From: Candidatus Eiseniibacteriota bacterium
GTDB taxonomy: Bacteria > Eisenbacteria > RBG-16-71-46 > CAZAMP01
NCBI GenBank assembly: GCA_965224245.1
Contig: OZ245046.1
Span: 2,084,148 to 2,148,147, forward strand
Direction of reading: 5' to 3'
Length of the DNA: 64,000 nucleotides
In this document: piece after piece, positions 40,303 to 64,000 of the stretch
Layout: each line of letters opens with the position of its first letter
Position numbering within the stretch: the first letter of the stretch is position 1
The notes under the pieces: generated by a model
Told to the model about the DNA's origin: nothing
The model's database searches: none
Seen by the model: the letters and a program-made list of their open reading frames with translations, nothing else
Translations under genes and position numbers: made by a program

Positions 40303-40303
40303 G

Positions 40304-44545: not shown

Positions 44546-44598
44546 GCGAGGACTCCCGACGACCGCCGGCGCCGTGGATCGCGCCGGGTCGTCCGCGT

Positions 44599-45539: not shown

Positions 45540-45540
45540 G

Positions 45541-46194: not shown

Positions 46195-46718
46195 ACGCCC
46201 GCCTCGGCCGGATCGAGAACGCCGATGTAGGGCAGCTCGCGGTGCCGCTCGGCGTAGTCCATGCCGTACCCGACCACGAACTTGTCGGGGATCGCGAAGC
46301 CCACGTAGTCCACCTTCACGTCCACCTCGCGCCGATCCACCTTGTCCAGGAGCGCGCAGGTCCTGAAGGACCGGGGGCGCCGGATCTGGAGGCTATCGCG
46401 CATGTAGGCCAGCGAGCGACCCGAGTCCACGATGTCCTCGACGAGCAAGAGATCGCGGCCGGAGACGTCGGTGTCCAGGTCCTTCAGCAGGCGCACGACG
46501 CCGCTGGAGGACGTGCCGTCCCCGTACGAGGACACGGACATGAAGTCGACCTCGTGCGGGATCGGCAGCCTGCGCATGAGGTCCGACATGAACATGAACG
46601 AGCCCTTGAGGACGCCGACCAGGATCAGGTCGGCGTCGGGACCGTAATCGCGCGTGATCTCCCCGGCGAGCTCGTCGACCCGCCGGTCGATCGCCTCGCG
46701 CGTGATGAGTATCTCCAC
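46191..46718 (-). CDS. hpt: hypoxanthine phosphoribosyltransferase
   Basis: GTG at 46716-46718 (GGGGGGAG upstream) gives 175 aa; PRPP motif 'LLLVEDIVDSGRS', 'YVGFAIPDKFVVGYGMDYAERHR'. Confidence 0.85.
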   Translation of the reverse strand: MEILITREAIDRRVDELAGEITRDYGPDADLILVGVLKGSFMFMSDLMRRLPIPHEVDFMSVSSYGDGTSSSGVVRLLKDLDTDVSGRDLLLVEDIVDSGRSLAYMRDSLQIRRPRSFRTCALLDKVDRREVDVKVDYVGFAIPDKFVVGYGMDYAERHRELPYIGVLDPAEAGV

Positions 46719-46851
46719 GGCTGAGCTCCCCCCTGCGCGCGCTTGCGGAATTGAGTCGGCGAGGGTAGCGTCCCGCTCGAGAGGGGTCAATCGGTCTCCC
46801 CGGCACACGCCGCAACGCGGTACGGCTCCGAACGCTCGCCCCGAGGTCGCC

Positions 46852-49510: not shown

Positions 49511-51289
49511 CTAGCGATACTGGCTCTTGATCTGGCCCCAGCTCTTGCGGTGGATCGGGGTCGGGCAGCTGACGCCGTCCTCGATGTCCGTCCGCCGCCG
49601 CGGCAGGACCTGGTAGCCCTCGTCGTACGGCGAGGAGCTGTCGAACTGGCCCGCGATCCCGGTGATCGTGAACGGCATGACCGGAATGGCCGAGCCGTCG
49701 ATGTCGGTGTCGCTGTCCACGCGCATCTCCGAGGGACCGGTACCGTCGTCGATCACGAGGTTGACGCTCACGCCGTCGGCCGGCCACTCGCCCGAGATGA
49801 TCTCGACGCCGCAGATCTTGATCAGGCAGTCGTCGTAGGCCTCGCCGTTGGAGGCGTACTCGCCGGTCGTGATCTCGATGGGCTCCGGCAGCGGCGCGGT
49901 GCCGGAGATCACGAGGCTCGTGATGCTGGTGATCTCGGTCTTGCCGTTGAAGAAGTCCAGCGTCCCGACGACCTCGGTGATGAAGTCACCCTCGGCGATC
50001 GGGTTGGCGAAGGTGTCGTAGCTGAAGTCGAAGAGCGTGATGCAGCAGCCGGTCGACGGCTGGTAGACCTGGATCTCCAGGCCGCCCACCCGGAACACGT
50101 CGGTGGCCACGGTGGCCACGACGTCCGTGATGCGCACGAGCTCGCCGAAGTGAACCGGGAAGCCGTTCGCGTCGTTCTCGTCCAGCTGACAGACGGTGTA
50201 GTCGGTCGGATCGGTGACCGGATCGCAGTCCGGATCGTTGAACGCGCCCGGCGTGGGCGTGATGTCGGCCACGAAGTCCTCGGCGTTGTCGTCGGTGTCC
50301 ACGCCGTCGGGGCAACGCGCGATCGACGTGCCACCCGGGACGTCCGGCGCCGCGGTCCCGCCCTCGCAGACCAGGTCCGGATCCTCGCCGTAGCACACGC
50401 TGTCGATGTTCTCGGCGGGGTCGGTGATGTCGTATGTGCCGTCGCCGTTGGCGTCGAAGGCCAGGACGACCTGGTCCGGTCCGTTCTGCCAGTCGGCGGT
50501 CGCGTCGATGAAGTCGGCCTCGGCCACCGTCGCGTCCTGGGCCACCACGAAGTAGCCGTCGCCCGGGATCGCGTTGCCGTCGAGCACGAGCGTCGCGTAC
50601 ACGACGCCGCCGTTGCCGTTCACGCCGATGAGCGCGTGACCGTCGAGGCTCTGGCCCGCGTTGCCGTAGAGCTCGGTGAACATACCCACGTCGGTGCCCG
50701 AGCCGTCGTAGAGCACCTCGTTGATCACGAGCGCGACGCCCGTGCCGCAGACGAGATCGTTCTCGGCGCCCGGCGTCGGCGTGTCGTCGGCCAGGAAGTC
50801 GACCTCGTTGTCGTCGGTGTCGGAGCCGTCCGGACAGCGGGCGAGCGAGACGCCGCCGAAGACGTCCTCGGCGAAGGTGCCGCCCTCGCAGACGAGGTCG
50901 GGATCGGAGCCGTAGCACACGCTGTCGATGATGTTCACTCCCTGCACCAGGCGGACCTGATCGGGGCCGTTCTGCCAGTCCGCGGTGCCGTCGACGAGGT
51001 CGGCCTCGGTCACGGTCGCGTCCTGACCGACGACGAAGTAGCCGTCGGCGGGAATCACGGATCCGGTCAGATCGATCGTCGCGTACACGACGCCGCCGTT
51101 GCCGTTGACGCCCTCGAGCGCGTACCCGTCGAGGCTCGTGCCGGGCTCGCCCTTGAGCTCGGTGAACATGCCCGCATCGGTGCCCGGGCCGTCGTACAGC
51201 AGCTCGTTGATGACGATCTGCGCTCCTGCCGTCCCGGCGAACCCGGTCAGCGCGAGAACGGACGCGATCGTCACTTGCAACCGCTTCAT
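49511..51289 (-). CDS. secreted protein with two tandem lamin-tail-like domains
   Basis: Internal ATG at 51287-51289 (AAGGAG upstream); signal peptide 'MKRLQVTIASVLALTGFAGTAGA'; two ~162-aa repeats each with 'INE(L/V)LYDG.GTD.GMFTEL', 'GVNGNGGVVYAT', 'GYFVV.QDATV', 'DSVCYG.DPDLVCEGGT', 'ARCPDG.DTDDN'. Confidence 0.75.
   Translation of the reverse strand: MKRLQVTIASVLALTGFAGTAGAQIVINELLYDGPGTDAGMFTELKGEPGTSLDGYALEGVNGNGGVVYATIDLTGSVIPADGYFVVGQDATVTEADLVDGTADWQNGPDQVRLVQGVNIIDSVCYGSDPDLVCEGGTFAEDVFGGVSLARCPDGSDTDDNEVDFLADDTPTPGAENDLVCGTGVALVINEVLYDGSGTDVGMFTELYGNAGQSLDGHALIGVNGNGGVVYATLVLDGNAIPGDGYFVVAQDATVAEADFIDATADWQNGPDQVVLAFDANGDGTYDITDPAENIDSVCYGEDPDLVCEGGTAAPDVPGGTSIARCPDGVDTDDNAEDFVADITPTPGAFNDPDCDPVTDPTDYTVCQLDENDANGFPVHFGELVRITDVVATVATDVFRVGGLEIQVYQPSTGCCITLFDFSYDTFANPIAEGDFITEVVGTLDFFNGKTEITSITSLVISGTAPLPEPIEITTGEYASNGEAYDDCLIKICGVEIISGEWPADGVSVNLVIDDGTGPSEMRVDSDTDIDGSAIPVMPFTITGIAGQFDSSSPYDEGYQVLPRRRTDIEDGVSCPTPIHRKSWGQIKSQYR
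50219..51220 (-). repeat. intragenic tandem duplication (2 x about 486 bp)
   Basis: DNA-level repeat, e.g. 'cgtcgcgtacacgacgccgccgttgccgtt' at 50591-50620 and again at 51077-51106; period 486 nt equals the 162-aa protein repeat. Confidence 0.65.
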
Positions 51290-51530: not shown

Positions 51531-51974
51531 ATGAGCGCTCACCCCAAGCGACCGGACGGCCCTGCGCGCCCCGATCCGGGCACACGGGCCGCCCTCGAGG
51601 GCCTCGTCTCCCGGTGCGGGCCGTCGCCCGGTGACCAGTGCCCCGCTCTCGCGGCCTGCGGCGACACCGCGGGCCCGATCGGGGTCGCGGTCACGGTCCG
51701 GAGCCAGACGCCCGGCCTCGGCGCCTGCGCGACCCGGCTCGTCCTGGCCCGCGCCGTGGCCGAGGGACGGGCCGCCACACACCTGGTCGTGGACGGCGAC
51801 TGGCAACGGCTGTGCGGGCTCTGCCTGCAGACCCTGCTCGAGCTGGCGCCCGAAGCCCCGGTCTTTCCGCTCGGCCCCAACCCCTCGGCCCCGGTGCCCT
51901 GGCGATCGTTGATCCCGGATCCGTTCGTCTCGTTCATCCCCGAGCCGGCCCCCGGAGGCCCCCGTGTCGACTGA
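51531..51974 (+). CDS. hypothetical Cys-containing protein
   Basis: ATG at 51531; high GC3; 147 aa with 'CGPSPGDQCPALAACGD' and 'CGLC'; its stop overlaps the rpiB start. Confidence 0.5.
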   Translation: MSAHPKRPDGPARPDPGTRAALEGLVSRCGPSPGDQCPALAACGDTAGPIGVAVTVRSQTPGLGACATRLVLARAVAEGRAATHLVVDGDWQRLCGLCLQTLLELAPEAPVFPLGPNPSAPVPWRSLIPDPFVSFIPEPAPGGPRVD

Positions 51975-52431
51975 CCGGCCGAGGCGGGTCGCCATCGGAG
52001 CCGACCATGCCGCCTATCGTTACAAGGTCTCGCTCATGGAGTGGATGAGAGAGGAGCTGGCGGGCGTGTCGGTCCTGGACTGCGGCACCCACTCCGAGGC
52101 CCCGGTCGACTACCCCGACATCGCGGCCGCGGTCGCGAACGCGGTCCGGACCGGCGAGGTGGACCGCGGCATCGTCATCGATCACGCCGGGATCGGATCC
52201 ACGATGGCCGCGAACAAGATCCGCGGGGTCCGGTGCGCGCTGTGCCACGACGAGGCGACCGTCCTCAACAGCCGCCGCCACAACGACGCGAACGTCCTGG
52301 CGCTGGGAAGCGCGGTCGTGAACGTCGGCTACGCGCGCACGCTCGTCCGCGTGTGGCTCGCCGCGCCGTTCGAGGGCGGACGGCACGCGCGGCGCGTGGA
52401 CAAGATCATGGCGCTCGAGGGCTCGTCGTGA
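51964..52431 (+). CDS. rpiB: ribose-5-phosphate isomerase B (RpiB/LacAB family)
   Basis: 'RVAIGADHAAY...VIDHAGIGSTMAANKIRGVRCAL...RRHNDANVLALG...EGGRHARRV' aligns with E. coli RpiB; GTG start. Confidence 0.85.
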   Translation: MSTDRPRRVAIGADHAAYRYKVSLMEWMREELAGVSVLDCGTHSEAPVDYPDIAAAVANAVRTGEVDRGIVIDHAGIGSTMAANKIRGVRCALCHDEATVLNSRRHNDANVLALGSAVVNVGYARTLVRVWLAAPFEGGRHARRVDKIMALEGSS

Positions 52432-53234
52432 TCGTCCCCGGCGGCAACGCCGTCCCGCCCGCGCTCCGCCGGGCCATCGAGGAGCGCGGCCCGAGCGCGA
52501 GTCCGGCGGCCGGGGGCCGTGCCCCGATCGCCTCGATCGCGTCGGTCGTCGACCACACGCTGCTCCGGGCCGACGCCTCGCAGACCCAGATCGAGACGCT
52601 CTGTGCCGAGGCGATCGAGTACGGCTTCGCGTCGGTGTGCGTGAATGCGATCTGGGTGCCGGTGGCCGCGCGCGCGCTCACCGGGTCGGACGTGAGCGTG
52701 TGCACGGTGGTCGGCTTTCCGCTGGGTGCCATGCGCTCGCCGATCAAGGCGCTCGAGGCCGAGACCGCCCGGGCACGCGGCGCGCGGGAGATCGACATGG
52801 TGGTGAACGTGGGCGAGCTGATCGGCGGCGGCGCCGACCGGGTCCGCGAGGACATCGCAACCGTCCGCCGCGTGCTGTCACCCGACGCCACGCTGAAAGT
52901 GATCCTGGAGACGGCGTTCCTCTCCGACGACCAGAAGCGACTGGGCGCCCGCGTGGCCGTCGAGGCCGGCGCGGACTTCGTGAAGACGTCCACCGGCTTC
53001 GGCCCCGGCGGAGCGACGGTGCCCGACGTGCGGCTGCTCGCCGAGACCGTGGGCGAGCGGTGCCGGGTCAAGGCCTCGGGCGGCATCCGGACGCTCGCCG
53101 CGGCGCGGGCCCTCGTCGAGGCGGGCGCGGCGCGCATCGGGGCCAGCGCCGGCGTGGCGATGGCGCGTGAGGAGCGCGGGCTCTCGACGACGACGACGAT
53201 CCCATCGGCCCCACCGCCTCACGGCGGCTACTGA
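52428..53234 (+). CDS. deoC: deoxyribose-phosphate aldolase
   Basis: GTG at 52428 overlapping the rpiB stop; 'VDHTLL', 'VVGFPLG', 'KVILET', Schiff-base lysine region 'AGADFVKTSTGF', 'KASGGIRT'. Confidence 0.85.
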   Translation: MIVPGGNAVPPALRRAIEERGPSASPAAGGRAPIASIASVVDHTLLRADASQTQIETLCAEAIEYGFASVCVNAIWVPVAARALTGSDVSVCTVVGFPLGAMRSPIKALEAETARARGAREIDMVVNVGELIGGGADRVREDIATVRRVLSPDATLKVILETAFLSDDQKRLGARVAVEAGADFVKTSTGFGPGGATVPDVRLLAETVGERCRVKASGGIRTLAAARALVEAGAARIGASAGVAMAREERGLSTTTTIPSAPPPHGGY

Positions 53235-53365
53235 GCCGGATCCGGCCTCGCTCCCGGCGGTCGCCGCGCCCGGGCCCACCCGGAAAAGGGTGGCGAACGC
53301 CCGAAGCGGAACACTAGACTCGCCCGCACGTGAACACCCGTCGACGACCCCAACGCTCCCGTGGG

Positions 53366-56269
53366 ATGCGCATGACGTTGCCGCTTCATCAGCGCCGCCG
53401 AGCCCTCCCGGGCCTCGTCGCGATCGTCCTGGTCACGCTGGCGACGCTCGTCGCGTCGACGACGACCGCCGGCCTCGCGCGCGCGGCGGACGCCCCCGCC
53501 GGTCAGACCGGCATCGTCCGGGGCACGGTCGTGGACGGCGACTCCCAGGAGCCCCTCCCCTTCGCCAGCATCATCGTCAAGGGGACCACGCGCGGCGCTC
53601 CGTCGCGCGACGACGGCTCGTTCGGCATTCGCGGCGTCGCCACCGGCAGCCAGGCGCTGCTGGTGACCTACGTCGGCTACTCGCCGATGGAGTTCCCCGT
53701 CCTCATCCATGCCGGCGAGGTGACCACGGTGCGCATCGAGCTGTCGCGGTCGGTCGGCTCGGTCGAGGAGGTCAAGGTCTTCGGAGACCGTCCCCTCGTG
53801 GACGTGCGCGAGACGTCCTCGTTGAAGACGCTCTCCACGCAGGACATCGACGACCTGACGATCGAGCCCACGCTGGAGTCGCTGCTGGGTCAGCAGGCCG
53901 GCGTGTCGGTCCAGGACGGTGAGATCCACATCCGGGGCGGACGATCCGACGAGACCGCGCTGATCGTGGACGGCGTGTCGCTGAAGGACGCCGTCTCGGG
54001 CGCGGCGGTGGCGGGCGCGCTCAGCGCCGGATCGGCGGCCGAGGTGTCGGTGGCCAAGGGCGGCTGGAGCTCCAAGCACGGTGACGCGATCAGCGGCGTC
54101 GTCGACGTGCGGGTGCGCGAGGGCACCGAGCAGTGGAAGGGCTCGGTCAGCTACACCACCGATGCGATGGTGGGCACGCAGTCGCTGCACTACGCCAATC
54201 TCCAGCTGAGCGGACCCAACGTGCTGTTGAAGCCGTTCTCGGCGCTGTTCGGCATCGACCGCTCGCAGCCGGCCACGTTCCACCTCGACCTGTCGACCGA
54301 GCTGTCGGACACGTACCTGCCCTCGGTCCGGGATCTCGGCCCGGGACGCCGGCGACTGAAGTCGTCGTACGTCAACACGCTCCTCGGGAAAGACCTCGAC
54401 TTCGGAGACTTCTTCACCCCGCGCGGCAGCAACGACTGGCGCTTGACCGCGAAGACGGGCTGGACGGTTCATCCCGCGCACAAGCTCACCGCCACGTACA
54501 TCAAGTCGCTCGGCTTCTCGAGCCAGTTCCAGGCGGTGGACATCGGGGAGGTGAACCAGAACATCACGCAGTACCCGTGGGCCTGGAGCCACCGCCTCGA
54601 CGACCACTACACGATCTCGACCGACTTCTACGCGCTGTCGCTGCAGTGGAAGCACTCGCTGGGCGACACGAAGTACCATCAGCTGCGCACCAAGTATCGC
54701 TTCTCGGCCACGCACCAGGACGTCCGCGGCCTGAACTGGGCCGACTACGAGGAGCCGTCGGACGAGATTCTCGACGACGATCACCCGTACTTCGTCGACT
54801 CCGGCACCGCGCCCCAGTACCACGACCGCTACTCCGAGCTGGCCGGCATCGACTGGGACTTCGTGTCCAACGGCGAGCACCACGACGTCGAGTTCGGGGT
54901 CAGTGCCGGCTACGAGGACGTGCAGTACTTCAGCCTCGACGCCTACAGCGTGACCCAGGACGCGCCCCTCGGTGACGAGTACGACCTCTTCCGCGTCTTC
55001 CCGGCCAAGGGCAGCTTCTACGTCGACGACAAGATCGAGTATCCCGGCATCGTCATGCGCGTGGGTGTGCGCGGCGACGTCTTCTTCCCGGGCGAACGCG
55101 TGGAGCGCCTGTTCGACGCGGCCGATCGACCGGGCTTCAACGAGGCCACGCGGGCGGAGTGGTACGACGCCACGAACGAGATCTTCGGGCGGCGCTACAA
55201 GATCCGCTTCAGTCCGAGCCTGGGGATCAGCCATCCGATCACCGATCGCAGCAACTTCTTCTTCAACTACGGTCGGTTCACGAAGTGGCCCACGTACTTC
55301 TACATGTACGCGGCCACGGGCGGCATCTCGTCGCCGGAGTTCGCCAACATCGGCAACCCCAACCTCGACCCACAGATCTCCGCGCAGTACGAGTTCGGTG
55401 TGGGGCACCGGCTCTCGGATCGGCTCTCGCTTCGCGCACAGGTCTTCTTCAAGGACATCTACGACTACCCGACGTCGGTGCCCGTGGAGCTCGGCACCCG
55501 CGAGACCCGGCGCCAGACGTTCTTCGTCTACCGCAACGCCGACTACGGGCGATCGCGTGGAATCGAGATCGAGGTGCAGCGCCGGCGCGAGCGCTACGCC
55601 TGGTACTCGGCCAGCTACTCGTTCTCGGTGGCCTCCGGCAAGTCGTCCGATCCTAATGCGCTCAACGTCGTGCAGTCGCTCGGTGGCGACGCGCGAGAGA
55701 CCGATCTCGAGGAGCAGTTCCTGTGGTGGCATCGCCCACACAAGCTGACGCTGTCGGGCGGCTATCAGGTCGACGCCGATCAGCGCGCCCCGAAGCTCTT
55801 CGGGTGGAGGCTTCCCAGGGAGTGGAAGCTGAGCTTCTTCTGGCTTCTCCAGTCCGGCGAGGCCTACACGCCGACCACCCCGCTGGGTACGCGCATCGAC
55901 AAGAGCTACTCGCGCAACGGCCCCATCGACAGCGTGTTCGATCTGAACGTGGTCAAGACGTTCCGGGTGGGCGATCGGCCCTTCCAGCTCACGTTCTCGG
56001 CCCGCAACCTTTTCAACCACCGGACGGTGCTCGAGATCGACTCGGCCACCGGAGACTCGCCGCGATCGGGGCTGGGCTCGAACTGGCGACCCGCCGAGAG
56101 CCCGCAGGAGCTCGTCGCCGTGGGCTACACGGTGCGTGAGACCGACACGCTGTACGAGGAGCTGGCCGGCTTGAACGACGCCATCGTGCGTTCGATGACC
56201 GGGCTGTTGAACCCCGCGTACATCGCCGCGCCGCGCAGCCTCCGGGTGGGCATCGGCTATGAGTGGTAG
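53366..56269 (+). CDS. TonB-dependent receptor, SusC-like (carboxypeptidase-regulatory-like domain, plug, beta-barrel)
   Basis: Signal peptide; 'GIVRGTVVDGDSQEPLPFASIIVKG...YVGYSP' CarboxypepD_reg-like; plug 'VEEVKVFGDRPLVD...IHIRGGRSDETALIVDGVSL'; barrel ending in an aromatic residue '...RVGIGYEW'; start could be 53330 (GTG), 53366 or 53372. Confidence 0.8.
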   Translation: MRMTLPLHQRRRALPGLVAIVLVTLATLVASTTTAGLARAADAPAGQTGIVRGTVVDGDSQEPLPFASIIVKGTTRGAPSRDDGSFGIRGVATGSQALLVTYVGYSPMEFPVLIHAGEVTTVRIELSRSVGSVEEVKVFGDRPLVDVRETSSLKTLSTQDIDDLTIEPTLESLLGQQAGVSVQDGEIHIRGGRSDETALIVDGVSLKDAVSGAAVAGALSAGSAAEVSVAKGGWSSKHGDAISGVVDVRVREGTEQWKGSVSYTTDAMVGTQSLHYANLQLSGPNVLLKPFSALFGIDRSQPATFHLDLSTELSDTYLPSVRDLGPGRRRLKSSYVNTLLGKDLDFGDFFTPRGSNDWRLTAKTGWTVHPAHKLTATYIKSLGFSSQFQAVDIGEVNQNITQYPWAWSHRLDDHYTISTDFYALSLQWKHSLGDTKYHQLRTKYRFSATHQDVRGLNWADYEEPSDEILDDDHPYFVDSGTAPQYHDRYSELAGIDWDFVSNGEHHDVEFGVSAGYEDVQYFSLDAYSVTQDAPLGDEYDLFRVFPAKGSFYVDDKIEYPGIVMRVGVRGDVFFPGERVERLFDAADRPGFNEATRAEWYDATNEIFGRRYKIRFSPSLGISHPITDRSNFFFNYGRFTKWPTYFYMYAATGGISSPEFANIGNPNLDPQISAQYEFGVGHRLSDRLSLRAQVFFKDIYDYPTSVPVELGTRETRRQTFFVYRNADYGRSRGIEIEVQRRRERYAWYSASYSFSVASGKSSDPNALNVVQSLGGDARETDLEEQFLWWHRPHKLTLSGGYQVDADQRAPKLFGWRLPREWKLSFFWLLQSGEAYTPTTPLGTRIDKSYSRNGPIDSVFDLNVVKTFRVGDRPFQLTFSARNLFNHRTVLEIDSATGDSPRSGLGSNWRPAESPQELVAVGYTVRETDTLYEELAGLNDAIVRSMTGLLNPAYIAAPRSLRVGIGYEW

Positions 56270-57284
56270 CGCGCACGCAGCCGCGGCGATCGGCGCTGCC
56301 CGCGCGGCCGCCGCCGCTCTCGCGGCGATGGCGGTCCTCTCGTGCCTGGCGGGCCCCGTCTCGGCCATCGGCGACCAGCGCTCGGGCACCAGCTCGGGCA
56401 CGTTCCTCAAGATCGCCGCCGATCCCCGGGGCGCCGCGATGGGCAACGCCGTGGTGGCCGACGCGCCCGGGATCACCGCGCTCGTCTGGAACCCGGCATC
56501 GCTGACCACGCTGGGCACGATGCAGCTCATGGCGTCGTACACGCGCTGGCCGGGCGAGATCGACTACTCGTACGCGGCGCTGGCCAGCTACGTCGGGCGC
56601 TTCTCCGGCACCGTGGGGCTCCAGATCGGCCACCTCGGCGTCGTCATGGAGGAGACGACCGAGGCCAATCCGACCGGGACCGGCGAGAACTTCGGCGTCC
56701 GGGACTGGTTTCTGGCGGGAACCTACGCGCGCCGGTTCACCGACCGGCTCTCGTTCGGCCTCACCGCCCGGTTGGTGCGCGAGGAGCTCGGCACCGAGAT
56801 CGGCGGTCCGTCCTCCACGAACGTGCTGTTCGACTTCGGGACGCTCTACTACATGGACTTCCTCGATCTGAAGCTGGCGTTCGCGCTCCAGCACTTCGGT
56901 CCCGAGTTTCAGCCCAGCGGTGAGTACGTCTCGGCCGCGACCGGCGCGGAGACGAGCTACGAGCCCTTCGCCCCTCCCACGACGTTCCGCCTCGGCGTTT
57001 CGGGTCCCATCCATCGCACCGAGCACACGCTGATCCGGGGCAACGTCGAGATGAACCACTTCTCGGACGCCGACGAGACGCTCCGCGTGGGCACCGAGTT
57101 CGGCTTCGACGACATGTTCTTCGTGCGCGCCGGATACGACATCGCCGCGGACGCGATGAAGTTCTCGGCTGGAGCGGGCTTCCACACGCGTTTCGGATTC
57201 AGCACCGGAGACGCGGACTACGCGTTCACCGATGCCGGCCCACTGGGAGTGGTACACCGCGTTGCGATTCGCATCGATCTGTAG
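56259..57284 (+). CDS. PorV/PorQ-like (FadL-fold) outer-membrane beta-barrel protein
   Basis: Signal peptide; N-terminal 'GTFLKIAADPRGAAMGNAVVADAPGITALVWNPASL' matches the FadL/PorV-family motif; amphipathic beta-strand pattern; start overlaps the last codons of the receptor gene. Confidence 0.5.
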   Translation: MSGSAHAAAAIGAARAAAAALAAMAVLSCLAGPVSAIGDQRSGTSSGTFLKIAADPRGAAMGNAVVADAPGITALVWNPASLTTLGTMQLMASYTRWPGEIDYSYAALASYVGRFSGTVGLQIGHLGVVMEETTEANPTGTGENFGVRDWFLAGTYARRFTDRLSFGLTARLVREELGTEIGGPSSTNVLFDFGTLYYMDFLDLKLAFALQHFGPEFQPSGEYVSAATGAETSYEPFAPPTTFRLGVSGPIHRTEHTLIRGNVEMNHFSDADETLRVGTEFGFDDMFFVRAGYDIAADAMKFSAGAGFHTRFGFSTGDADYAFTDAGPLGVVHRVAIRIDL

Positions 57285-57312
57285 ACCGGCGCACCCCGGC
57301 GCCCCTGGGCGC

Positions 57313-59274
57313 GTGGGCCGCGCCCGGAGGATCCTGGCGCTCTGGGGGACGGGTACGATCGTGATCGGTTGTGCCGAGAAGTTCGACCTGCCGCCGGTGC
57401 CCGAGCCGTTCATCCCGGTACCCGGTGCGTACAACTTCGACCACGAGTGGCGCGGCATGGGACGCGTCGTGGACATGGCGATGACGGGCGTGCAGCTGTA
57501 CGTGCTGACCGAGCGCGACGGCAGCCGCACCGTGGAGGGCTACCTGGCCACCGCGGCCGAGCCGGTCGAGCTCCCGGACTTCCTGATCGGCGACTACGCC
57601 GGCGCCCGGCGCCCGGTCGCGATTGCGCAGCAGGGCGATCACCTGTACGTGGCCGATGCACGCGGCCCCGACGCCTTGACCCTCGAACGCGAGTGCGGCG
57701 GCGACGACTGCGCGCTTCGGCTGACCGCGGGCGCCGGCGGCTCGATCCAGCACCTGGCCGGCCGCGACCTCGTCGAGCGCGTCCGACAGGACTTCCGGCT
57801 CGACATGCGCTTCCGCCTCGACGCGTTCCCCGACGGGTCGCGCGCGTGGATCACGCTGGGGACGGCACCCGGGCGGCCGGCGATCTGGCTCGAGGTGGGG
57901 CGCGATCGGTTCATCCGGCCCGTGCGCTCGGACGGCGCGTTCCCGGTGGACTCGCTGGCCTTCGGGCTCGGCGAATGGCACGACATCTCGATTCGTCACG
58001 ATTGGGCCGGAAGCACGTACGCGGTCACGATGGACGGCACGCGCTTCACGACCAACGTCCCCGTCTACTATCCGCTGGAGGACGACGCCATCGGCGCGCT
58101 GTCGATCCGGCTGACCGGCGACGGTGTCTCGGGCGCCGTGGACGACGTCGTGCTGTCGATCGACCAGAGGGCGCCGGGCGCGATCACCGATCTGACCGTC
58201 GAGCCGGTCAGCGCGGCGGCGGTGCGTCTGCGCTGGACGGCACCCGGCGACGACGGCGACACCGGCACCGTGGAGCGATACGAGATCCTGTGGGCTCGCC
58301 GCGAGGCGCTGCTCGAGGACGGCACTCCGGTACCGGGGCCCACCCCGCTGCCGGCGGGGAGCCTCCAGACGTTCGATCTCCTGGGCCTGGGAGGCGCCGA
58401 TTCGGTCTACGTGTACGTGACCGCATACGACGAGAGCGACAACGCGGGTCCCCCGTCGAACCTGGCGGTCACCGCCGTGACGTCGCCGCATCGCGTCCCG
58501 CGGGCTGCGCGAGCGGGACGGCCGGCCCGCACGCTTCCGGACACGCTCCTCGTCATCGACTTCGAGGACGTGTCGGAGCTGGACGCGTGGACTCTCGGTC
58601 CGTTCTTCACCAACGACCCGGCCCCGGCCGTCCTGCGCTACGATCTCCGCGAGGGCGGCGACCCGGAGCTCGCGATGACGAACCCCGACTGGTATCACGT
58701 GCACGGGATCGCGGTCTCCCCCACGCGCATCGTGTACGTGTCGGTGGAGACGCGCGACCCGGCCGATCCGTCCGGGGTGCTCCGGCTGGGCGAGATCCAG
58801 CGCTTCGACGCCGCGGGGCGCCCGCTCGAGCCCCTGGCCGAGAGCGGGAGCGGCGCCGGCTTCGTCTCCTCGCCGCGTGGCATCTACTTCGACAGCGAGA
58901 ACGTGCTCGTGGCCGACGCCGAGCTGAACCGCGTGCAGAAGCTGGACGCGTCCACCACCAACGAGGGTCTCGTGCAGATCCCTCCGCTCGACGTCAGCGA
59001 GGCCTGGTTCAGCGCGCCCACCGAGGTGGTCAGCGACGAGCGGCTGTTCATCTACGTCGCGGACACCGGCTCGGATCGCATCCTCCGCTTCGACCGCGAG
59101 GGTGCGTTCGCGGACACCGTGTACGCCCCGATGTACGAGCCGACCATCGGCGCCGGCGTCCTCGCGCGCCCCAGCGCGATCGAGGCCGACTCCGCCAGCG
59201 TGTGGGTGGCCGACCCGGCAAACGAGCGCATCGTCGTCCTGACGCGGGCGGGCACGATCTCGGGAGGTGGATGA
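57313..59274 (+). CDS. lipoprotein with fibronectin-III-like and NHL-repeat-like regions
   Basis: GTG at 57313 gives signal plus lipobox 'RILALWGTGTIVIGC'; 'VRLRWTAPGDDGDTGTVERYEIL' Fn3-like; repeated 'LY(V/I)AD...R(I/V)..LD' NHL-like blades; the ATG at 57232 is an alternative start. Confidence 0.6.
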   Translation: MGRARRILALWGTGTIVIGCAEKFDLPPVPEPFIPVPGAYNFDHEWRGMGRVVDMAMTGVQLYVLTERDGSRTVEGYLATAAEPVELPDFLIGDYAGARRPVAIAQQGDHLYVADARGPDALTLERECGGDDCALRLTAGAGGSIQHLAGRDLVERVRQDFRLDMRFRLDAFPDGSRAWITLGTAPGRPAIWLEVGRDRFIRPVRSDGAFPVDSLAFGLGEWHDISIRHDWAGSTYAVTMDGTRFTTNVPVYYPLEDDAIGALSIRLTGDGVSGAVDDVVLSIDQRAPGAITDLTVEPVSAAAVRLRWTAPGDDGDTGTVERYEILWARREALLEDGTPVPGPTPLPAGSLQTFDLLGLGGADSVYVYVTAYDESDNAGPPSNLAVTAVTSPHRVPRAARAGRPARTLPDTLLVIDFEDVSELDAWTLGPFFTNDPAPAVLRYDLREGGDPELAMTNPDWYHVHGIAVSPTRIVYVSVETRDPADPSGVLRLGEIQRFDAAGRPLEPLAESGSGAGFVSSPRGIYFDSENVLVADAELNRVQKLDASTTNEGLVQIPPLDVSEAWFSAPTEVVSDERLFIYVADTGSDRILRFDREGAFADTVYAPMYEPTIGAGVLARPSAIEADSASVWVADPANERIVVLTRAGTISGGG

Positions 59275-61307
59275 TGCGGCGGTGGTTCGAACGAGGGGTG
59301 TGTGCTCTCGGACGCGTGGCGATCGCCGCCGGGATGGGTGCGCTCGTCGCGGGCCCGCTCACCGAGGCGGCGGCCCAGATCACCGCGTTCGACGAACGCG
59401 TCACCACCGCCGGCAACATCGGCCTCACGGTCTCCAACTACGCCAGACAGGGGAACGACTTCCGCAACCGATCCTCGTCGTTCGAGTTTCCCGCCCGGAG
59501 CGGCGAGGAGCACATGACGCGGGGCGGAATCTGGATCGGCGGCATCGTCCTGAACGCCGCCGACGCGTCGCTGGACACCCTCGTGACCACGTCGGTCAGC
59601 GACGACTACGGCGGTGCCGAGCTGGGCTCGAGCGCCGAGTTCACGCCGGTGCGCGGCGCGGGCTGGCCTCCGGGCACGTCGATGCTCGAGCGATCCGCCC
59701 AGCCCTCGAGCGCGTTCTTCTCGCCGCAGGCCATCGCCGATCAGGAGTTCGTGGCCATCTGCGTGGACACCGTGCGCGTGGGGACCGGCGTGGATCGACA
59801 TCGCCCCCTGAACGTCAAGCTGCGCCAGGAGGCACTGGTCTGGGGCTTCAACCCGTACGACGGGATCGTGTTCATCAACTTCGAGCTGACGAACCTGAGC
59901 CGCACCCGCAACGTCTTCGACGTCTACGTGGGTCTCTACACCGAGCTGACCAGCGGCAACAAGGACGCCGCCGATCGGTGGCCGCCGCCGGGCGCGTGGT
60001 ACGGCACGAAGAACATCGCGTGGGTCGACTCGCTGCGCTATCTGGCCGAGCAGCGCGCGCCGGGGCTGTCGGGCGACCCGTACGAGGTGTCCTCCTGGTG
60101 CGGCGCTCAGATGCTGGGCATCTCCACGTCGATCCCGGGGGACGACTCCACGATCGACGACAAGACGACCACGTTCGTGTGGTGGGAGTGGCAGGACGAG
60201 ACCCCGGAGACCGATCGGGAGCGATACGAGGTCATGTCCTCGGGCGAGACCACGCCGACGCAGTTCGACGAGTTCAGCGATCTCGGCGCCGATCCGGTCT
60301 CCCTGACCTCGATCGGGCCGTTCTCCACGCTGTCCGCCAACGAGGCCGACACGGTGCGCTTCTCGATCGCGTACATCGGCGGGCTGGACGCCGAGGACCT
60401 CAACGACCGAGCGAAGATCGCGCTCGACGCGTACCGCCAGGGCTTCCGCATCCCGAAGCCGCCACCGGCCCCGGACTACCTCGTGGAGCCCGGACCGAAC
60501 GAGATCACGATCCGCTGGGACGACACGGCCGAGCGCACGCCCGACCCGCAGACGGGCCTGATCGACTTCGAGGGCTACCGGCTCTATCTGGGCCGATCGT
60601 CCGAGTCGACCGCGCTGGATCTCCTGAAGGAGGTCGACGTCGTGGACGACTACACGTACTCGCCCGACGCCACGCAGGAGGACATCCGCTTCAACACGGG
60701 GCTGGAGTCGGTCCTGTCCGACGATCCGATCATCGTCGTGGACGGCGAGGACACGCTGCGCTACGTGTACGAGTACGTGATCCGCGACCTCCGTGACGGG
60801 TTCAAGTACTGGACGTCGCTGACCGCGTTCGACAAGGGCACGCAGGAGATCGGTCCCCTGGAGAGCGGCCTGGCGCTGACCCAGCGCCTGTCGATACCGG
60901 GATCGAGCCCGGTGCCGGTCGACGACGGGTCGGGGCGCGTGTCGGTGTTTCCGAACCCGTACCGGGGATCGGCGGCCTGGGACGGCGAGCAGCTCCGCGA
61001 TCGCTATCTCTGGTTCCGCAATCTGCCCCAGCGGGCGCGCATCCGGATCTACACGCTGGGCGGGGATCTCGTGGATTCGTTCGACTTCGACGGCGACACC
61101 TACGACGCGCGGGACGTGCGCGGCATCTACGATCCGACCGACCCGCGGAACCCGGAGATCGATCTCCCCGTCATGTCCGGCGGCATGGCGGCCTGGGACC
61201 TGATCACGCGAGACGACCAGGCGATCGCCACCGGACTCTATCTGTTCAGCGTCGAGGACCTGGCGACCGGCCGCCGGGACCTCGGGAAGTTCCTGGTTCT
61301 GAAGTAG
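59271..61307 (+). CDS. secreted protein with C-terminal sorting-type domain (FlgD-Ig / T9SS-CTD-like)
   Basis: ATG overlapping the upstream stop; signal peptide 'ALGRVAIAAGMGALVAGPLTEAAAQ'; last ~110 aa 'VSVFPNPYRGS...RIRIYTLGGDLVDSFDFDG...AAWDLITRDDQAIATGLYLFSVED...GKFLVLK'. Confidence 0.6.
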   Translation: MMRRWFERGVCALGRVAIAAGMGALVAGPLTEAAAQITAFDERVTTAGNIGLTVSNYARQGNDFRNRSSSFEFPARSGEEHMTRGGIWIGGIVLNAADASLDTLVTTSVSDDYGGAELGSSAEFTPVRGAGWPPGTSMLERSAQPSSAFFSPQAIADQEFVAICVDTVRVGTGVDRHRPLNVKLRQEALVWGFNPYDGIVFINFELTNLSRTRNVFDVYVGLYTELTSGNKDAADRWPPPGAWYGTKNIAWVDSLRYLAEQRAPGLSGDPYEVSSWCGAQMLGISTSIPGDDSTIDDKTTTFVWWEWQDETPETDRERYEVMSSGETTPTQFDEFSDLGADPVSLTSIGPFSTLSANEADTVRFSIAYIGGLDAEDLNDRAKIALDAYRQGFRIPKPPPAPDYLVEPGPNEITIRWDDTAERTPDPQTGLIDFEGYRLYLGRSSESTALDLLKEVDVVDDYTYSPDATQEDIRFNTGLESVLSDDPIIVVDGEDTLRYVYEYVIRDLRDGFKYWTSLTAFDKGTQEIGPLESGLALTQRLSIPGSSPVPVDDGSGRVSVFPNPYRGSAAWDGEQLRDRYLWFRNLPQRARIRIYTLGGDLVDSFDFDGDTYDARDVRGIYDPTDPRNPEIDLPVMSGGMAAWDLITRDDQAIATGLYLFSVEDLATGRRDLGKFLVLK

Positions 61308-61318
61308 GGGTATCGCCG

Positions 61319-62839
61319 ATGGAGTCGAGTCGATCGATTGGAGCCATCGGGGCGCGCGCGGCTCTCGCGGCGGCCTCGGTGGTGCTGGTCGTGGCCGGCT
61401 GCGAGGCCCCCACCGGCTCCCGGGTCGGCAACCTGCCGCCCGAGACGTACCTGTTCATCAGTGACGCCGAGACCGACACCACGAGCTACGTCGTGGACCT
61501 CCACTGGTGGGGATCGGACCCCGACGGCGACGTGGTCGAGTATCAGTTCCGGATCGACAGCCTGTGGACTCCCGATCCGACCGATACGTTGACCGCCGAC
61601 GACCCGCCGTGGGTCCGCACGGTCCGCACCGAGCGGACGTTCACGCTGCCGGTCGAGGGCACCGGCCGGTCGGCGGTGGTGACGTTCCGCGCCGTCGACG
61701 ACGCGGGCGCGATCGACCCGATGCCGGTCACCCAGACCTTCCACCTCCGGAACCGAAAGCCGACGCTGGAGTTCGGCACAGACCTGGCTCGGCCCACCCG
61801 CTCGCTGCCCGCGGTCACGTTCTCGGTGGTCGCCGAGGACCCCGAGGGCGACGAGACGATCGTCGGCTACCGCGTGTGGTTCGACGGCGAGGACCGGGAG
61901 ACGGACGCGCGCACGATCCCCGGGCCCGCGGTGGCCCAGATCGCGCTCGGTCCCGACGACTTCCCGAGCGCCGGCGCGCTGACGATCAACATCGTGGCCG
62001 TCGACGACTCGAACACCGAGAGTGACCGGGTGCTCCGGCACACGTGGGACGTCATCGACACCGAGGCCAAGCGGGTCCTCATCGTCGATCAGTATCCCGC
62101 CGGTGGGCTGTTCGACGCGGACATCGCCGCGTTCTGGCGGAACGTCACCGAGGCGCGCCTGTCACCGGACGAGATCATCACGTTCGACTACACGGCCGAC
62201 GGCGGCTTTCGCACGACGGCCGAGGTGGAGCTGAGCTTCTCGGCATTCGAGGCGGTCATCTGGTACTCGGGGCTCCAGCCGAACAACCTGACCCAGACGC
62301 TCCGGCGCATCCAGGAGCTCAGGCGGGCCAGCCAGGCGATGGAGCGATACACCGCCGGCGGCGGGAACGTGCTCCTGTCGAGCACGTTCGCGTTCGGAAA
62401 TGCAGTGAACCCGACCGAGGGTGCGGCGTCGGCCGCCTGGGATTCCGCCGCCACGTATCGCCTCTTGCGGATCACGCGCGAGTTCACGAACCCTCAGGGC
62501 AACACGAACTTCCTGTTGTTCCCGACGATCACGTTCGGCTTTCCGGCCGAGTGGGCACTCCCGACCACGCATCCGCAGGGACTGCTGAACTACGTGGACT
62601 TCCTGGCCGTCCCGACCCGCATGACCCGGCTCATGTGGGTGCCTCCGGGGTCTCTCAACGTGGGCTTCGACGATGACGGCAACTTCGTCCAGAACGAGGT
62701 CGACTACGACTGCGCGTTCCGGATCGACACCGAGGGCGGCGGCGCGTTCGTCATCGCCACGCTGCCGCTGTCGCGGCTGAACCCGATCACCTCGGGCGAG
62801 ACGTTCGTGAACCGGGCGTTCGATGCGTTCGGGCTCTGA
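61319..62839 (+). CDS. hypothetical lipoprotein
   Basis: AGGGG 10 nt upstream; signal plus lipobox 'AALAAASVVLVVAGC'; 506 aa with no recognisable catalytic motif. Confidence 0.55.
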   Translation: MESSRSIGAIGARAALAAASVVLVVAGCEAPTGSRVGNLPPETYLFISDAETDTTSYVVDLHWWGSDPDGDVVEYQFRIDSLWTPDPTDTLTADDPPWVRTVRTERTFTLPVEGTGRSAVVTFRAVDDAGAIDPMPVTQTFHLRNRKPTLEFGTDLARPTRSLPAVTFSVVAEDPEGDETIVGYRVWFDGEDRETDARTIPGPAVAQIALGPDDFPSAGALTINIVAVDDSNTESDRVLRHTWDVIDTEAKRVLIVDQYPAGGLFDADIAAFWRNVTEARLSPDEIITFDYTADGGFRTTAEVELSFSAFEAVIWYSGLQPNNLTQTLRRIQELRRASQAMERYTAGGGNVLLSSTFAFGNAVNPTEGAASAAWDSAATYRLLRITREFTNPQGNTNFLLFPTITFGFPAEWALPTTHPQGLLNYVDFLAVPTRMTRLMWVPPGSLNVGFDDDGNFVQNEVDYDCAFRIDTEGGGAFVIATLPLSRLNPITSGETFVNRAFDAFGL

Positions 62840-63106
62840 GGTCCGAGGCCGCCCCGCGGCCCGGCCGGGATCCCGGTCGCGCTGACCGGACGGACACCCG
62901 CGTCGAGCCCCGCATCTGTTGTCGGCTCCGAGGGCCATGTGATAGACTCTGCGCGCTCGAAACAGACGAGACGCGCGCCGCACCGACAACGCAACTTCGC
63001 CATTTACAGCCACTTGCGGCCGTCATCCAGAAACGGAAACAAGGGCGACGGACGCCGCAGATCGCGTCGGCGGCCCCGGCACCGCATCCGATCGAAGGAG
63101 CCTCTC

Positions 63107-64000
63107 ATGCAGCGAGCCATCGGCTCTCTCGTGTGCGCCGGCGTGGCGTTGACCGCGATGGTCGCCCCCGCCGTCGCCGACCTGACCATCTACGACATCC
63201 AGGGATACGGAGCTGTGACGCCGGGCAATCCCGTGGACGTCGACGGCGTCGTCGTCACGGGCATCTACGCGTTCGGGTTCATGGCGCAGGAGCCCGACGA
63301 GGATGCCGGGTCGTCGATGTTCGGCCGCACGTACGGCGGGATCTGGGTGTACACCGGCGGCGCGCCGGACGTCGAGTTCGGCGATCTCGTGGACCTGGAA
63401 GGCGAGTACCAGGAGTTCTTCGACGAGTCCGAGATCGACGTGACGGTGGCCGGCAGCAGCGTGATGATCGTCGGAACCGCCCCGCAGCCGCCGTACCTTC
63501 CGGTCGTCATCACCGACATCAACGACGAGCTCGCCGGTGAGCCGTGGGAGGGCGTCCTGATCGAGACCACGCAGCCGAACATGGTCTCCACCGATACCCT
63601 CAACACCGGCTGCGGCAGCGCCTCCCCGACGCGCTGGGGCGTCTACCAGACCAGCGCGCCGACCGACTCGCTCTTCGTGCGAAACTCGGTCACCACGCAC
63701 GAGATCCCGATCCCCGGATCGCCGATCTCGTACCTCCGTGGCCCGATGAGCTTCCACCGGTGCCTCCGGAAGGTCATTCCCCGGGACAACGACGACATCG
63801 GCTACATCGCCGCGCCCAACATCGTCTGGGCGTACTCGACCGGCAACACGTCGTGCGACATCGTGTTCAGCCGCGACGTCACCCAGGCCAGCGCCGAGGA
63901 TGTGCTCAACTACTTCTTCGCCTCCGGGGTCGCGGTTCTCGCCGCCGAGCGCGACGCGAGCGACTTCAGCGTCGTCCACCTGACGACGTCGACACAGTTC
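63107..64000 (+). CDS. hypothetical secreted protein, 3'-truncated by the window edge
   Basis: Not in the ORF track because it has no stop; ATG at 63107 with AAGGAG 7 nt upstream; 298 codons open to the window end; signal peptide 'MQRAIGSLVCAGVALTAMVAPAVA'; high GC3. Confidence 0.55.
   Translation, partial: MQRAIGSLVCAGVALTAMVAPAVADLTIYDIQGYGAVTPGNPVDVDGVVVTGIYAFGFMAQEPDEDAGSSMFGRTYGGIWVYTGGAPDVEFGDLVDLEGEYQEFFDESEIDVTVAGSSVMIVGTAPQPPYLPVVITDINDELAGEPWEGVLIETTQPNMVSTDTLNTGCGSASPTRWGVYQTSAPTDSLFVRNSVTTHEIPIPGSPISYLRGPMSFHRCLRKVIPRDNDDIGYIAAPNIVWAYSTGNTSCDIVFSRDVTQASAEDVLNYFFASGVAVLAAERDASDFSVVHLTTSTQF

Follow-up and report, generated by a model that had tools for sequence, protein, structure and literature searches.

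A conserved outer-membrane locus of Candidatus Eiseniibacteriota with a TonB-dependent receptor, a PorV/PorQ-family barrel and DUF5689-like proteins, and its possible role in utilisation of extracellular DNA

Extracellular DNA represents a large pool of phosphorus, nitrogen and carbon in soils and sediments. To our knowledge, its passage across the outer membrane without a secretin and a pilus is represented by two recent cases only, both from Bacteroidota.

In B. thetaiotaomicron, ddbCD encode a DUF5689 protein and a TonB-dependent barrel with a CarboxypepD_reg domain, and the locus is needed for depletion of DNA; this comes from a preprint (bioRxiv 10.1101/2025.03.18.642099). Binding of DNA by DUF5689 has so far been deduced from structure only, likewise at preprint stage. 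The same pairing is found in R. anatipestifer, where RA0C_RS04915/04920 are essential for natural transformation (PMC8459023). Other precedents concern barrels with a partner. BamG, a 14-strand barrel of the FadL family, is permanently associated with a larger barrel and with a lipoprotein of the cell surface, and serves as a dock for a surface protein (PMC12578637). [quoted passage not shown] Proteins with T9SS tails have been reported solely from the FCB superphylum (PMC12398890). Literature searches for Eisenbacteria together with T9SS, and for PorV together with TonB and Ignavibacteria, returned no papers.

The locus considered here lies at the right end of a 64,000-nt stretch of DNA, referred to as the window. 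Its genes C, D, E and F, all on the plus strand, make up the distal end of a single conserved outer-membrane locus, to which the receptor pair A and B also belongs (Table 1). The initial annotation had recognized these four consecutive genes, with C taken from 57313, and this arrangement stands. The genes are tightly packed: A and B overlap by 11 nt, C and D by 4 nt, and D and E are 11 nt apart; the spacing between E and F (267 nt) is wider than the packing from A to E. The order A-B-C-D-E-F is kept in about 40 Candidatus Eisenbacteria-type loci, and a rearranged order, D-F-E-A-B-C-G, occurs in Ignavibacteria and Melioribacteraceae. A and B are syntenic in every locus with enough flanking sequence, and C neighbours B in both locus types. 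The scan for promoters and terminators performed no better than chance, and an Rfam search of the window gave zero matches. In the reading proposed below, the observed part consists of this conserved gene order, the homology of the domains and the fold of D.

Table 1. Positions of the locus genes and of neighbouring features in the window
Feature	Position	Strand	Description	Basis or remark
Nucleoside uptake/salvage island	39388..47949	- (adenosine deaminase +)		Pfam
G	49511..51289	-	Divergently transcribed secreted protein; two lamin tail domains and DUF5689-like C-terminal module	Ends '...SWGQIKSQYR'
rpiB, deoC	51964..53234	+		Co-directional with A, 96-nt gap to A
A	53330..56269	+	TonB-dependent receptor; N-terminal carboxypeptidase-regulatory-like domain, TonB-box-like segment, plug, barrel	Pfam
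B	56259..57284	+	PorV/PorQ-family 14-strand (FadL-like) outer-membrane barrel	Start overlaps A stop
C	57262..59274 (or from GTG 57313)	+	Lipoprotein; NHL beta-propeller and clade-specific insert	Pfam, homology
D	59271..61307	+	Secreted, 678 aa	Signal peptide; family without Pfam coverage
D, C-terminal domain	60936..61304	+	Residues ~555-677; seven-strand sandwich, two insertions	
E	61319..62839	+	Lipoprotein; Ig/Fn3-like domains	Lipobox, weak profile matches
F	63107..64000	+	Secreted; 5' part only, 298 aa	Signal peptide and first of two DUF5689-like OB-type modules

Judging from its sequence, A is a TonB-dependent transporter, with plug, barrel and TonB-box-like segment. Pfam recognizes the barrel (PF00593, TonB_dep_Rec_b-barrel, 85.4 bits), the plug (PF07715, 26.8 bits, cutoff 23.9) and CarbopepD_reg_2 (65 bits), and the segment 'EEVxVxGxRPLVDV ... 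IHIRGGR', whose 'EEVxVxGxRPLVDV' part precedes the plug, is conserved across 45 orthologs. A scores far below the SusC/RagA model TIGR04056 (67 vs 368 bits required), and the match covers the N-terminal part only. A SusD-like domain is found in no gene of the locus.

The earlier designation of B as PorV-like is borne out by the family model NF033709 (PorV/PorQ family, 167.2 bits, cutoff 90; residues 46-340 aligned to model positions 3-325) and by a match to PorV of F. johnsoniae in the PDB (6h3i_F, E 1.3e-6). B falls below the cutoffs of the PorV equivalog NF033710 (61.6 vs 250 bits), of the PorQ equivalog NF033711 (71.3 vs 220 bits) and of PorV2 (43.9 vs 325 bits). Because its gene always lies directly downstream of the TonB-dependent receptor gene, a dedicated, fixed receptor partner fits B better than a general shuttle, and BamG offers a precedent.

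C and E had been described as lipoproteins with lipoboxes VIGC and VAGC, and conservation of the lipobox cysteine among orthologs agrees with this. In C, the lipobox is followed by a conserved 'xKFxLPP', and in E Cys28 is invariant in alignment A4. The strict lipobox pattern is present in 19/28 orthologs of C and 42/58 of E, the rest having mostly near variants (GGC, FSC, GSC) or a wrongly called start. C contains NHL repeats (Pfam, E 2.5e-9) and an insert with a weak fn3 match. E is marked by the motifs 'NxPPxT' and 'WWGxDxDG'; weak fn3 matches appear in 8/39 members (Pfam) and weak Ig/cadherin matches in a PDB profile search, and its C-terminal domain matches no family in Pfam run on 39 orthologs or in the PDB profile search.

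D and F had been read as signal-peptide proteins, and their N-termini are indeed of SPase-I type as far as sequence tells. Three domains follow the signal peptide of D: a galactose-mutarotase-like beta-supersandwich (residues ~35-390), a domain of Fn3-like type (~395-545) and, at the C-terminus, a divergent domain of T9SS type. By comparison of folds, the large N-terminal domain is similar to accessory domains of carbohydrate enzymes; the supersandwich is a generic fold, and the YidC periplasmic domain matches it too. The D family is large: it counts 2131 cluster representatives at E<=1e-30 and extends, among the matches listed, over several FCB-group phyla at least.

The tail of D was the sorting domain of the initial annotation, and here the picture is mixed. 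PF18962, PF13860 and TIGR04183 match neither whole D nor its isolated C-terminus, even at E<=10, and an HMM built from bona fide tails of the locus also fails to detect it, so that membership in the curated profiles did not materialize. Among curated models, only the tail part of the PorZ model is hit, and that marginally (E 0.03). What stood were the quoted motifs and the homology itself. Profile-profile alignment of the D tail with bona fide T9SS tails gives 96.6% in hhalign (E 6.5e-10, columns 12-126 vs 17-102) and covers the full length of the domain, in which D carries two insertions; reversed sequences reach 23-26% over 14-15 columns and other beta-sandwich domains at most 7.6%. The AlphaFold2 model (pLDDT 91.4) has seven strands across residues 557-676. 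D thus ends in a genuine but divergent T9SS-type tail, whose homology is visible only at the profile-profile level.

PorZ provides the sole sequence-level match of the D tail among solved structures. This does not make D a PorZ homolog, a candidate that we rejected, since the match is confined to the tail and the PorZ beta-propellers are absent. The tail, which closes with '...GKFLVLK', is also the best-conserved region of D. Its conservation and its closeness to the retained PorZ tail make permanent docking a better fit than transient shuttling. Conservation as such is weak evidence for retention and was rejected as proof of it, because the canonical tail of F likewise exceeds the body of F in conservation.

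The canonical sorting domain of the locus appears to belong to F rather than to D. F is cut short by the end of the window, and this assignment comes from orthologs only; a sequence search for full-length F from this genome gave three fragments only. Full-length orthologs have 633-645 aa and end in a canonical T9SS tail, with FlgD_ig (PF13860) in 36, Por_Secre_tail (PF18962) in 31 and CHU_C in 23 of 40; the orthologs from loci L080 and L082, 53-56% identical to F, both carry PF13860. In close relatives such canonical tails are found on F orthologs and on nearby S8 peptidases. The earlier remark that core T9SS machinery is missing from the window holds, T9SS components being absent from all window ORFs scanned.

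The body of F suggests a link of the locus to nucleic acids. Its two DUF5689-like modules give 99.2% and 99.4% in hhalign against 1.1% for a reversed control, and among the 40 orthologs Pfam finds an OB-fold in 12, DUF5689 in 4 and CBM_56 in 8. The part of F inside the window matches the N-terminus of ExeM/NucH nucleases (E 1.9e-8). An AF2 model of partial F made from four sequences (pLDDT 36.4) was unusable. The second link is provided by G, which has the same position and orientation in L080/L081. Pfam finds LTD in it at 47 bits and DUF5689 directly only at E 0.035; its C-terminal module matches, by BLAST at E 1e-19 to 1e-12, proteins of the Ignavibacteria loci whose scores exceed the DUF5689 cutoff. 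In the window's own proteins DUF5689 is thus seen by profile-profile or transitive evidence only. The Ignavibacteria operon closes with a gene that combines DUF5689 (36-65 bits, cutoff 28.6) with Fn3 and a PLD-type nuclease (44-62 bits). No nuclease is recognisable in window genes A-G, and C, D and E hold no nucleic-acid-related domain.

The surroundings are rich in nucleoside genes. Those just upstream of A, rpiB and deoC, are 57-70% identical to L080/L082 genes annotated PF02502 and PF01791; among related loci, 19 have rpiB and 6 have deoC upstream of A. The minus-strand part of the island encodes two ABC permeases and an ABC ATPase (BPD_transp_2 x2, ABC_tran), a PnrA/Bmp nucleoside-binding protein (Bmp, 208 bits), uridine kinase (PRK, 156 bits), deoxynucleoside kinase (dNK, 178 bits) and a phosphoribosyltransferase (Pribosyltran, 89 bits); adenosine deaminase (A_deaminase) scores 321 bits. 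Besides the locus of the window, 22 related loci have nucleoside genes at their flanks; the Ignavibacteria loci have none adjacent. Their adjacency in the Eisenbacteria-type lineage could be inherited synteny.

As the most likely role of the cluster we suggest the capture of extracellular DNA that is then taken up; the reasons are the DUF5689 and lamin-tail domains, the PLD-type nuclease of Ignavibacteria and the adjoining nucleoside genes. In a more specific form, in which our confidence is about evenly balanced, the locus would be a variant of the ddb type, a PUL-like apparatus for DNA utilisation where some of the lipoproteins have given way to T9SS-exported proteins and a PorV-like barrel. 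C and E would arrive at the cell surface as lipoproteins, and the C-terminal domains of D and F would take these two across the outer membrane along the type IX route. B might be a fixed partner beside A and hold the probably uncleaved tail of D, possibly also that of F, in a manner resembling PorQ-PorZ or the PorP/SprF-like barrels with type-B cargo. At the surface, F and G would bind extracellular DNA, or another nucleic acid, through their DUF5689 modules. DNA fragments or breakdown products would then enter through A in a TonB-energised step, and the nucleosides would be consumed by the PnrA-type ABC importer together with add, udk, dNK, phosphoribosyltransferase, deoC and rpiB. Localisation of the proteins, docking of the tails to B, the substrate and the direction of transport make up the conjectural part of this scheme. 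Several observations speak against it: the window's version has no recognisable nuclease, C, D and E are devoid of domains related to nucleic acids, the N-terminal domain of D and the CBM_56 matches of F orthologs point to carbohydrates, the nucleoside genes may be neighbours through inherited synteny, and the tail of D escapes all curated tail models.

The presumed apparatus can be compared with ddbABCDEF of gut Bacteroidales (DdbC transporter, DdbD DUF5689 protein). Both combine a TonB barrel, DUF5689 and surface proteins without known domains in a PUL-like layout, and the Ignavibacteria operon adds a nuclease domain to the likeness. The ddb loci differ in that lipoproteins serve as DUF5689 partner and as accessory proteins, and in that they encode three nucleases. 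Here DUF5689 resides in the T9SS-tailed F and the lamin-tail protein G, and the locus additionally comprises a barrel of the PorV family and members of the large families D and E. Of the hallmarks of a ddb-type system, the TonB transporter and a DUF5689 protein are present and secreted nucleases in the locus are not. The likeness of A to DdbC and RA0C_RS04915 concerns the CarboxypepD_reg plus barrel architecture alone. Should the proposal be true, the principle of "TonB-dependent barrel plus DUF5689" would reach several little-known, mostly uncultured phyla, a new mode of assembly would be added in which T9SS-exported subunits and a PorV-like barrel take the place of lipoproteins, and the large unannotated families D and E would obtain their first functional context.

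As for the barrel, B may hold a surface protein by an uncleaved tail, in which it would resemble the pairs PorQ-PorZ and PorV-PorU. The D tail is nearest the PorZ tail in sequence and fold; B, unlike PorQ and PorV, is encoded with a TonB-dependent receptor and not with T9SS genes. The PorP/SprF-like barrels follow the same principle of a dedicated barrel next to anchored T9SS cargo, but differ both in barrel family (PorP/SprF vs PorV/PorQ) and in tail (type B vs FlgD_ig/type-A-like). The partner of BamG is BamA and not a TonB-dependent transporter, and its function is another one. For the T9SS field, the locus presents a natural test case for PorV-family barrels as dedicated anchors of uncleaved tails beyond the attachment complex. 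The architecture of a lamin tail with an OB-type N-terminal module in ExeM/NucH (NF033681) is common to G and F; the endonuclease/exonuclease/phosphatase domain of these nucleases is absent from F, in the part seen and in orthologs, and from G.

The locus had originally been interpreted as cargo plus shuttle. Of this, the surface-directed nature of the proteins, the T9SS-type tail of D and a conserved unit with a PorV-family gene remain supported. In such a scheme B would be a PorV-type shuttle moving cargo D from the T9SS translocon to the attachment complex, with the cargo gene placed beside the shuttle gene. Membership of B in the PorV/PorQ family and the T9SS-type tails of D and F speak for it, and PorV is known to bind such tails (PMC5562754). 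We consider it rather improbable: the bit score of B lies well below the PorV equivalog cutoff, its gene always follows the receptor gene directly instead of accompanying T9SS genes, and the tail of D, best conserved and nearest the retained tail of PorZ, fits permanent docking better. A, C, E, the DUF5689 modules and the nucleoside island would also be left unexplained; together, the DUF5689, lamin-tail, PLD-type nuclease and nucleoside genes indicate DNA utilisation or uptake and not a simple cargo-plus-shuttle locus.

Another reading is a PUL-like glycan locus, where the supersandwich of D, the CBM-like module of F and C would bind polysaccharide and fragments would enter via A. The generic nature of the supersandwich fold weakens this idea. 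Every version of the locus lacks a glycoside hydrolase or lyase catalytic domain, SusD and a sugar-catabolic gene, and DUF5689, the lamin tail domains, the PLD nuclease and the nucleoside genes would stay unaccounted for, so we regard binding of glycans as fairly improbable.

The same apparatus might import intact DNA for natural transformation instead of nutrition, as proposed for RA0C_RS04915/04920. The common core is a TonB-dependent, CarboxypepD_reg-bearing outer-membrane barrel paired with a DUF5689 protein (PMC8459023), and the window version is without a recognisable nuclease. The Riemerella locus lies near competence genes, and neither a PorV-like gene nor homologs of D and E have been described there. 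Here the operon is linked to genes of nucleoside catabolism and salvage and not to comEC, dprA or comF, and the Ignavibacteria version has a PLD-type nuclease; transformation is in our opinion a very improbable purpose. A housekeeping complex for outer-membrane biogenesis or maintenance, comparable to the Bacteroidota BAM with BamG and surface lipoproteins, is suggested by the size and phylum range of the D family and by the ability of FadL-like barrels to act as structural subunits, but we find it extremely improbable in view of the importer-typical plug and TonB-box-like segment of A, the absence of BamA, LptD and Lol-type domains, and a DUF5689, lamin-tail and nuclease content that suits substrate handling.

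Returning to DNA utilisation, a bolder extension can be formulated, which we deem unlikely. A PorV-family barrel would act outside the T9SS proper, being a permanent subunit of a TonB-dependent transporter, and with tail-docked DUF5689 proteins it would constitute an ancient gate for DNA import in the outer membrane. The families D and E, which have thousands of members and no Pfam coverage, would be in its core, and ddb and the Riemerella system would be reduced derivatives. If true, the gate would be common to Eisenbacteria-type lineages, Ignavibacteria, Zixibacteria, Calditrichota and some Bacteroidota, and would serve feeding and/or natural transformation.

Some minor observations concern gene boundaries. 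Comparison with the L080 ortholog indicates that C probably starts at TTG 57262 and not at GTG 57313. The database copy of D (P0001) begins one codon later and has 677 aa. In L014, a gap of 8 bp separates the end of the adenosine deaminase gene from a D paralog, which in turn lies ahead of A.

Comparison across genomes shows that genes A to F (table below) form a conserved locus rather than a chance grouping. Among species-representative genomes, at least 594 loci with relatives of D were found, and CP070702.1, OZ244990.1 and CP054675.1 are closed carrier genomes. Among the matches listed, the order A-B-C-D-E-F, identical to that in the window, recurs in about 40 Candidatus Eisenbacteria-type loci, and the order D-F-E-A-B-C, followed by G as seventh gene, is found in Ignavibacteria, Melioribacteraceae and some Bacteroidota MAGs. 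The closest relatives among these matches, L080/L081 (JGI metagenome) and L082 (GCA_975963955.1), are 49-63% identical to the window at protein level and reproduce its full layout, including the divergent lamin-tail gene and the upstream rpiB-deoC pair. In the window, where G+C content is about 70%, genes A to E are packed as in an operon: A and B overlap by 11 nt, C and D by 4 nt, and 11 nt separate D from E. The genome itself is closed and deep-branching (MetK, L27, L21 and MreB each form a singleton cluster at 90% identity), and its closest locus relatives among the matches listed are Eisenbacteria-type MAGs.

Genes of the locus and neighbouring nucleoside-related genes (window coordinates)
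Feature	Position	Strand	Description
PNP_UDP_1 phosphorylase	32191-33093		
Nucleoside uptake and salvage island	39388-47949		PnrA/Bmp-type ABC importer, udk (uridine kinase), dNK (deoxynucleoside kinase), phosphoribosyltransferase, add (adenosine deaminase)
G	49511-51289	-	Two lamin tail domains; DUF5689-like C-terminal module
rpiB + deoC	51964-53234		End 96 nt upstream of A
A	53330-56269	+	TonB-dependent receptor: N-terminal carboxypeptidase-regulatory-like domain, plug, barrel
B	56259-57284	+	PorV/PorQ family
C	57313-59274	+	Lipoprotein, lipobox VIGC; alternative start TTG 57262
D	59271-61307	+	678 aa, signal peptide, divergent tail
E	61319-62839	+	506 aa, lipoprotein, lipobox VAGC
F	from 63107	+	298 aa within window, then window end

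A signal peptide followed by Cys is recurrent in orthologs of C and E. Of 58 E orthologs, 42 show the strict lipobox pattern; for C the count is 19 of 28. Most of the others are close variants or proteins with a badly called start, and Cys28 is invariant in the E alignment. Comparison with the L080 ortholog, which begins 'MRFIAS...', suggests that TTG 57262 is the more likely start of C. Read by eye, the N-termini of D and F look like cleavable signal peptides; in the AlphaFold2 model of D, the first ~30 residues form a low-confidence helix.

The initial annotation joined the PorV-like gene and a T9SS-type tail on D into a cargo-plus-shuttle locus. That observation is confirmed in part, and its interpretation is supported in part. 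Both the PorV-like gene and the tail are real, and the two are linked, but a curated-profile match of D was not obtained: neither the whole protein nor its last 125 or last 179 residues matched PF18962, PF13860 or TIGR04183 at E<=10. The sole profile match of the D tail is marginal (E 0.03) and falls in the tail of the PorZ model, and an HMM built from 58 bona fide tails of related loci did not detect D. When 36 D-family tails were aligned with bona fide tails profile to profile, the alignment ran end to end with 96.6% probability (E 6.5e-10), with two insertions in the D tail, one of ~10 residues after 'PNPY' and one of ~25 in a later loop. Reversed sequences, used as controls, reached 23-26% over 14-15 columns, and three further beta-sandwich domains from this locus at most 7.6%. 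The AlphaFold2 model of D (82 homologs; pLDDT 91.4, pTM 0.90) places seven strands in residues 557-676. Judged by these alignments, the C-terminal domain of D is a relative of bona fide T9SS tails. It is also the most conserved part of D: homologs average 55% identity to the window copy there, versus 35% and 40% in the two remaining domains. This is a weak argument for a retained functional tail, because the ordinary tail of F likewise exceeds the F body in conservation. The D family is large (2131 cluster representatives at E<=1e-30); no Pfam domain was found in any D homolog, and the named homologs are all called 'hypothetical'. Phaeocystidibacter luteus, a cultured bacterium, encodes a D homolog (WP_151666839.1). 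In the Eisenbacteria-type loci L014, L007 and L024, a second D paralog lies between adenosine deaminase and A (L014:2875-4809, L007:2692-4701, L024:2932-4920), so that D-type proteins stand on both sides of the transporter.

Within this locus, the tail of canonical T9SS type would be that of F. Orthologs of F in Eisenbacteria-type genomes are 633-645 aa long and end in above-cutoff PF13860 and/or PF18962 domains; FlgD_ig is present in 36 of 40 F orthologs, Por_Secre_tail in 31 and CHU_C in 23, and the window copy ends before that part. T9SS-type tails have been reported from the FCB superphylum only (PMC12398890). Because S8 peptidases with FlgD_ig tails directly follow F in close relatives (L080:15753-18908, L082:1-1955), further T9SS-type cargo may be encoded in the window's genome past position 64000.

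B scores 167 bits on NF033709 (cutoff 90) and stays below the equivalog cutoffs of both PorV (62 of 250 bits) and PorQ (71 of 220 bits); among solved structures, F. johnsoniae PorV comes closest (E 1.3e-6). Since its gene is always directly downstream of A among the matches listed, and since it is neither PorV nor PorQ proper, we infer that B is a fixed partner of the transporter which docks a tail. The likeliest candidate for this tail is the conserved PorZ-like one of D. Precedents for such docking are PorQ, which holds the uncleaved PorZ tail (PMC10202324), the PorP/SprF-like barrels that are encoded beside type-B cargo and anchor it (PMC9143113), and the FadL-like BamG, a permanent partner of BamA and a surface lipoprotein (PMC12578637). 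The cargo-plus-shuttle label thus captures the link between tail and PorV-like gene and undersells the rest: as read from the sequence, the locus is a complete surface apparatus centred on the transporter.

The substrate of this apparatus is probably nucleic acids, as five independent observations suggest. Firstly, F contains two DUF5689-like modules (hhalign 99.4% and 99.2% against the DUF5689 alignment; reversed control 1.1%). Single-sequence Pfam searches find an OB-fold in 12 of 40 F orthologs and DUF5689 in 4 of 40, and window F resembles ExeM/NucH extracellular nucleases at their N-terminus (E 1.9e-8). Secondly, G has a pair of lamin tail domains, and its C-terminal module, weakly similar to DUF5689 directly (E 0.035), matches Ignavibacteria locus proteins in BLAST with E 1e-19 to 1e-12, and those exceed the DUF5689 cutoff. 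Thirdly, these Ignavibacteria proteins, encoded directly after C, combine DUF5689 (36-65 bits, cutoff 28.6) and an Fn3 domain with a PLD-type nuclease/phosphodiesterase domain (44-62 bits, cutoff 27). Fourthly, two proteins known as partners in DNA uptake belong to DUF5689. One is DdbD of B. thetaiotaomicron, predicted to partner the TonB-dependent transporter DdbC by binding DNA; its locus, ddbABCDEF, is needed for exogenous DNA to be depleted (bioRxiv 10.1101/2025.03.18.642099). The other is RA0C_RS04920 of R. anatipestifer, where natural transformation requires both this protein and the carboxypeptidase-regulatory-domain barrel RA0C_RS04915 (PMC8459023). For DUF5689 itself, DNA binding is a predicted property. 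Fifthly, nucleoside genes are neighbours of the locus. Members of the island (udk, rpiB, add or deoC; once cdd and PnrA) lie beside it in 22 related loci among the matches listed, and the adenosine deaminase gene of L014 stops 8 bp ahead of the D paralog preceding A. In Ignavibacteria loci the nucleoside genes are not adjacent, and the adjacency may be synteny inherited within one lineage.

We propose that C and E would act as surface lipoproteins and that D and F would be exported via the type IX pathway. B would sit beside A and dock a tail. DNA would be held over the channel of A by the DUF5689 modules in F and G, and what is taken up would go on to the ABC importer and the salvage enzymes encoded nearby. 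DNA import for transformation may be a variant of this scheme. A glycan reading of the locus keeps some weight through the N-domain of D and through CBM_56 matches in 8 of 40 F orthologs.

With nucleic acids as substrate, the locus would work similarly to ddb, as a PUL-like DNA-utilisation system. It is not a member of ddb as defined, because in this genome it has no in-locus nuclease (none is recognisable in the window version) and no lipoprotein DdbD; its additions are subunits with T9SS tails, a barrel of the PorV family and two large families that lack annotation. No published description of the A-F cluster was found in the searchable literature.

Several minor observations accompany the locus. 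An insert in the middle of C (window 57700-58700) varies among close relatives: in the window it matches fn3 weakly and includes a stretch that looks lectin-like by eye; the L082 copy (L082:7911-10001) carries a lamin tail domain with 49% identity to that of window G; and C of Eisenbacteria-type loci, at only ~320 aa, is without it. A GWxTD-domain protein (30810-32216, minus strand) and a DUF362 protein (36158-37336, plus strand) are encoded amid housekeeping genes (ftsK, metK, ptsI, GH57, pyrG, PBP2, mreBC, lgt, lptC, rpoN region). Finally, G ends in '...KSWGQIKSQYR' (49511-49546, minus strand), a copy of the extreme C-terminal motif [ST]WGx[IVL]Kxx[YF]R followed by a stop. The motif, which has the look of a short signal for sorting or docking, recurs at L006:4270-5001, L039:18864-21464(-), L057:6238-6990, L057:7106-7870 and L080:669-2450(-), its carriers being otherwise differing secreted proteins of Eisenbacteria-type loci without a T9SS tail or transmembrane helix.
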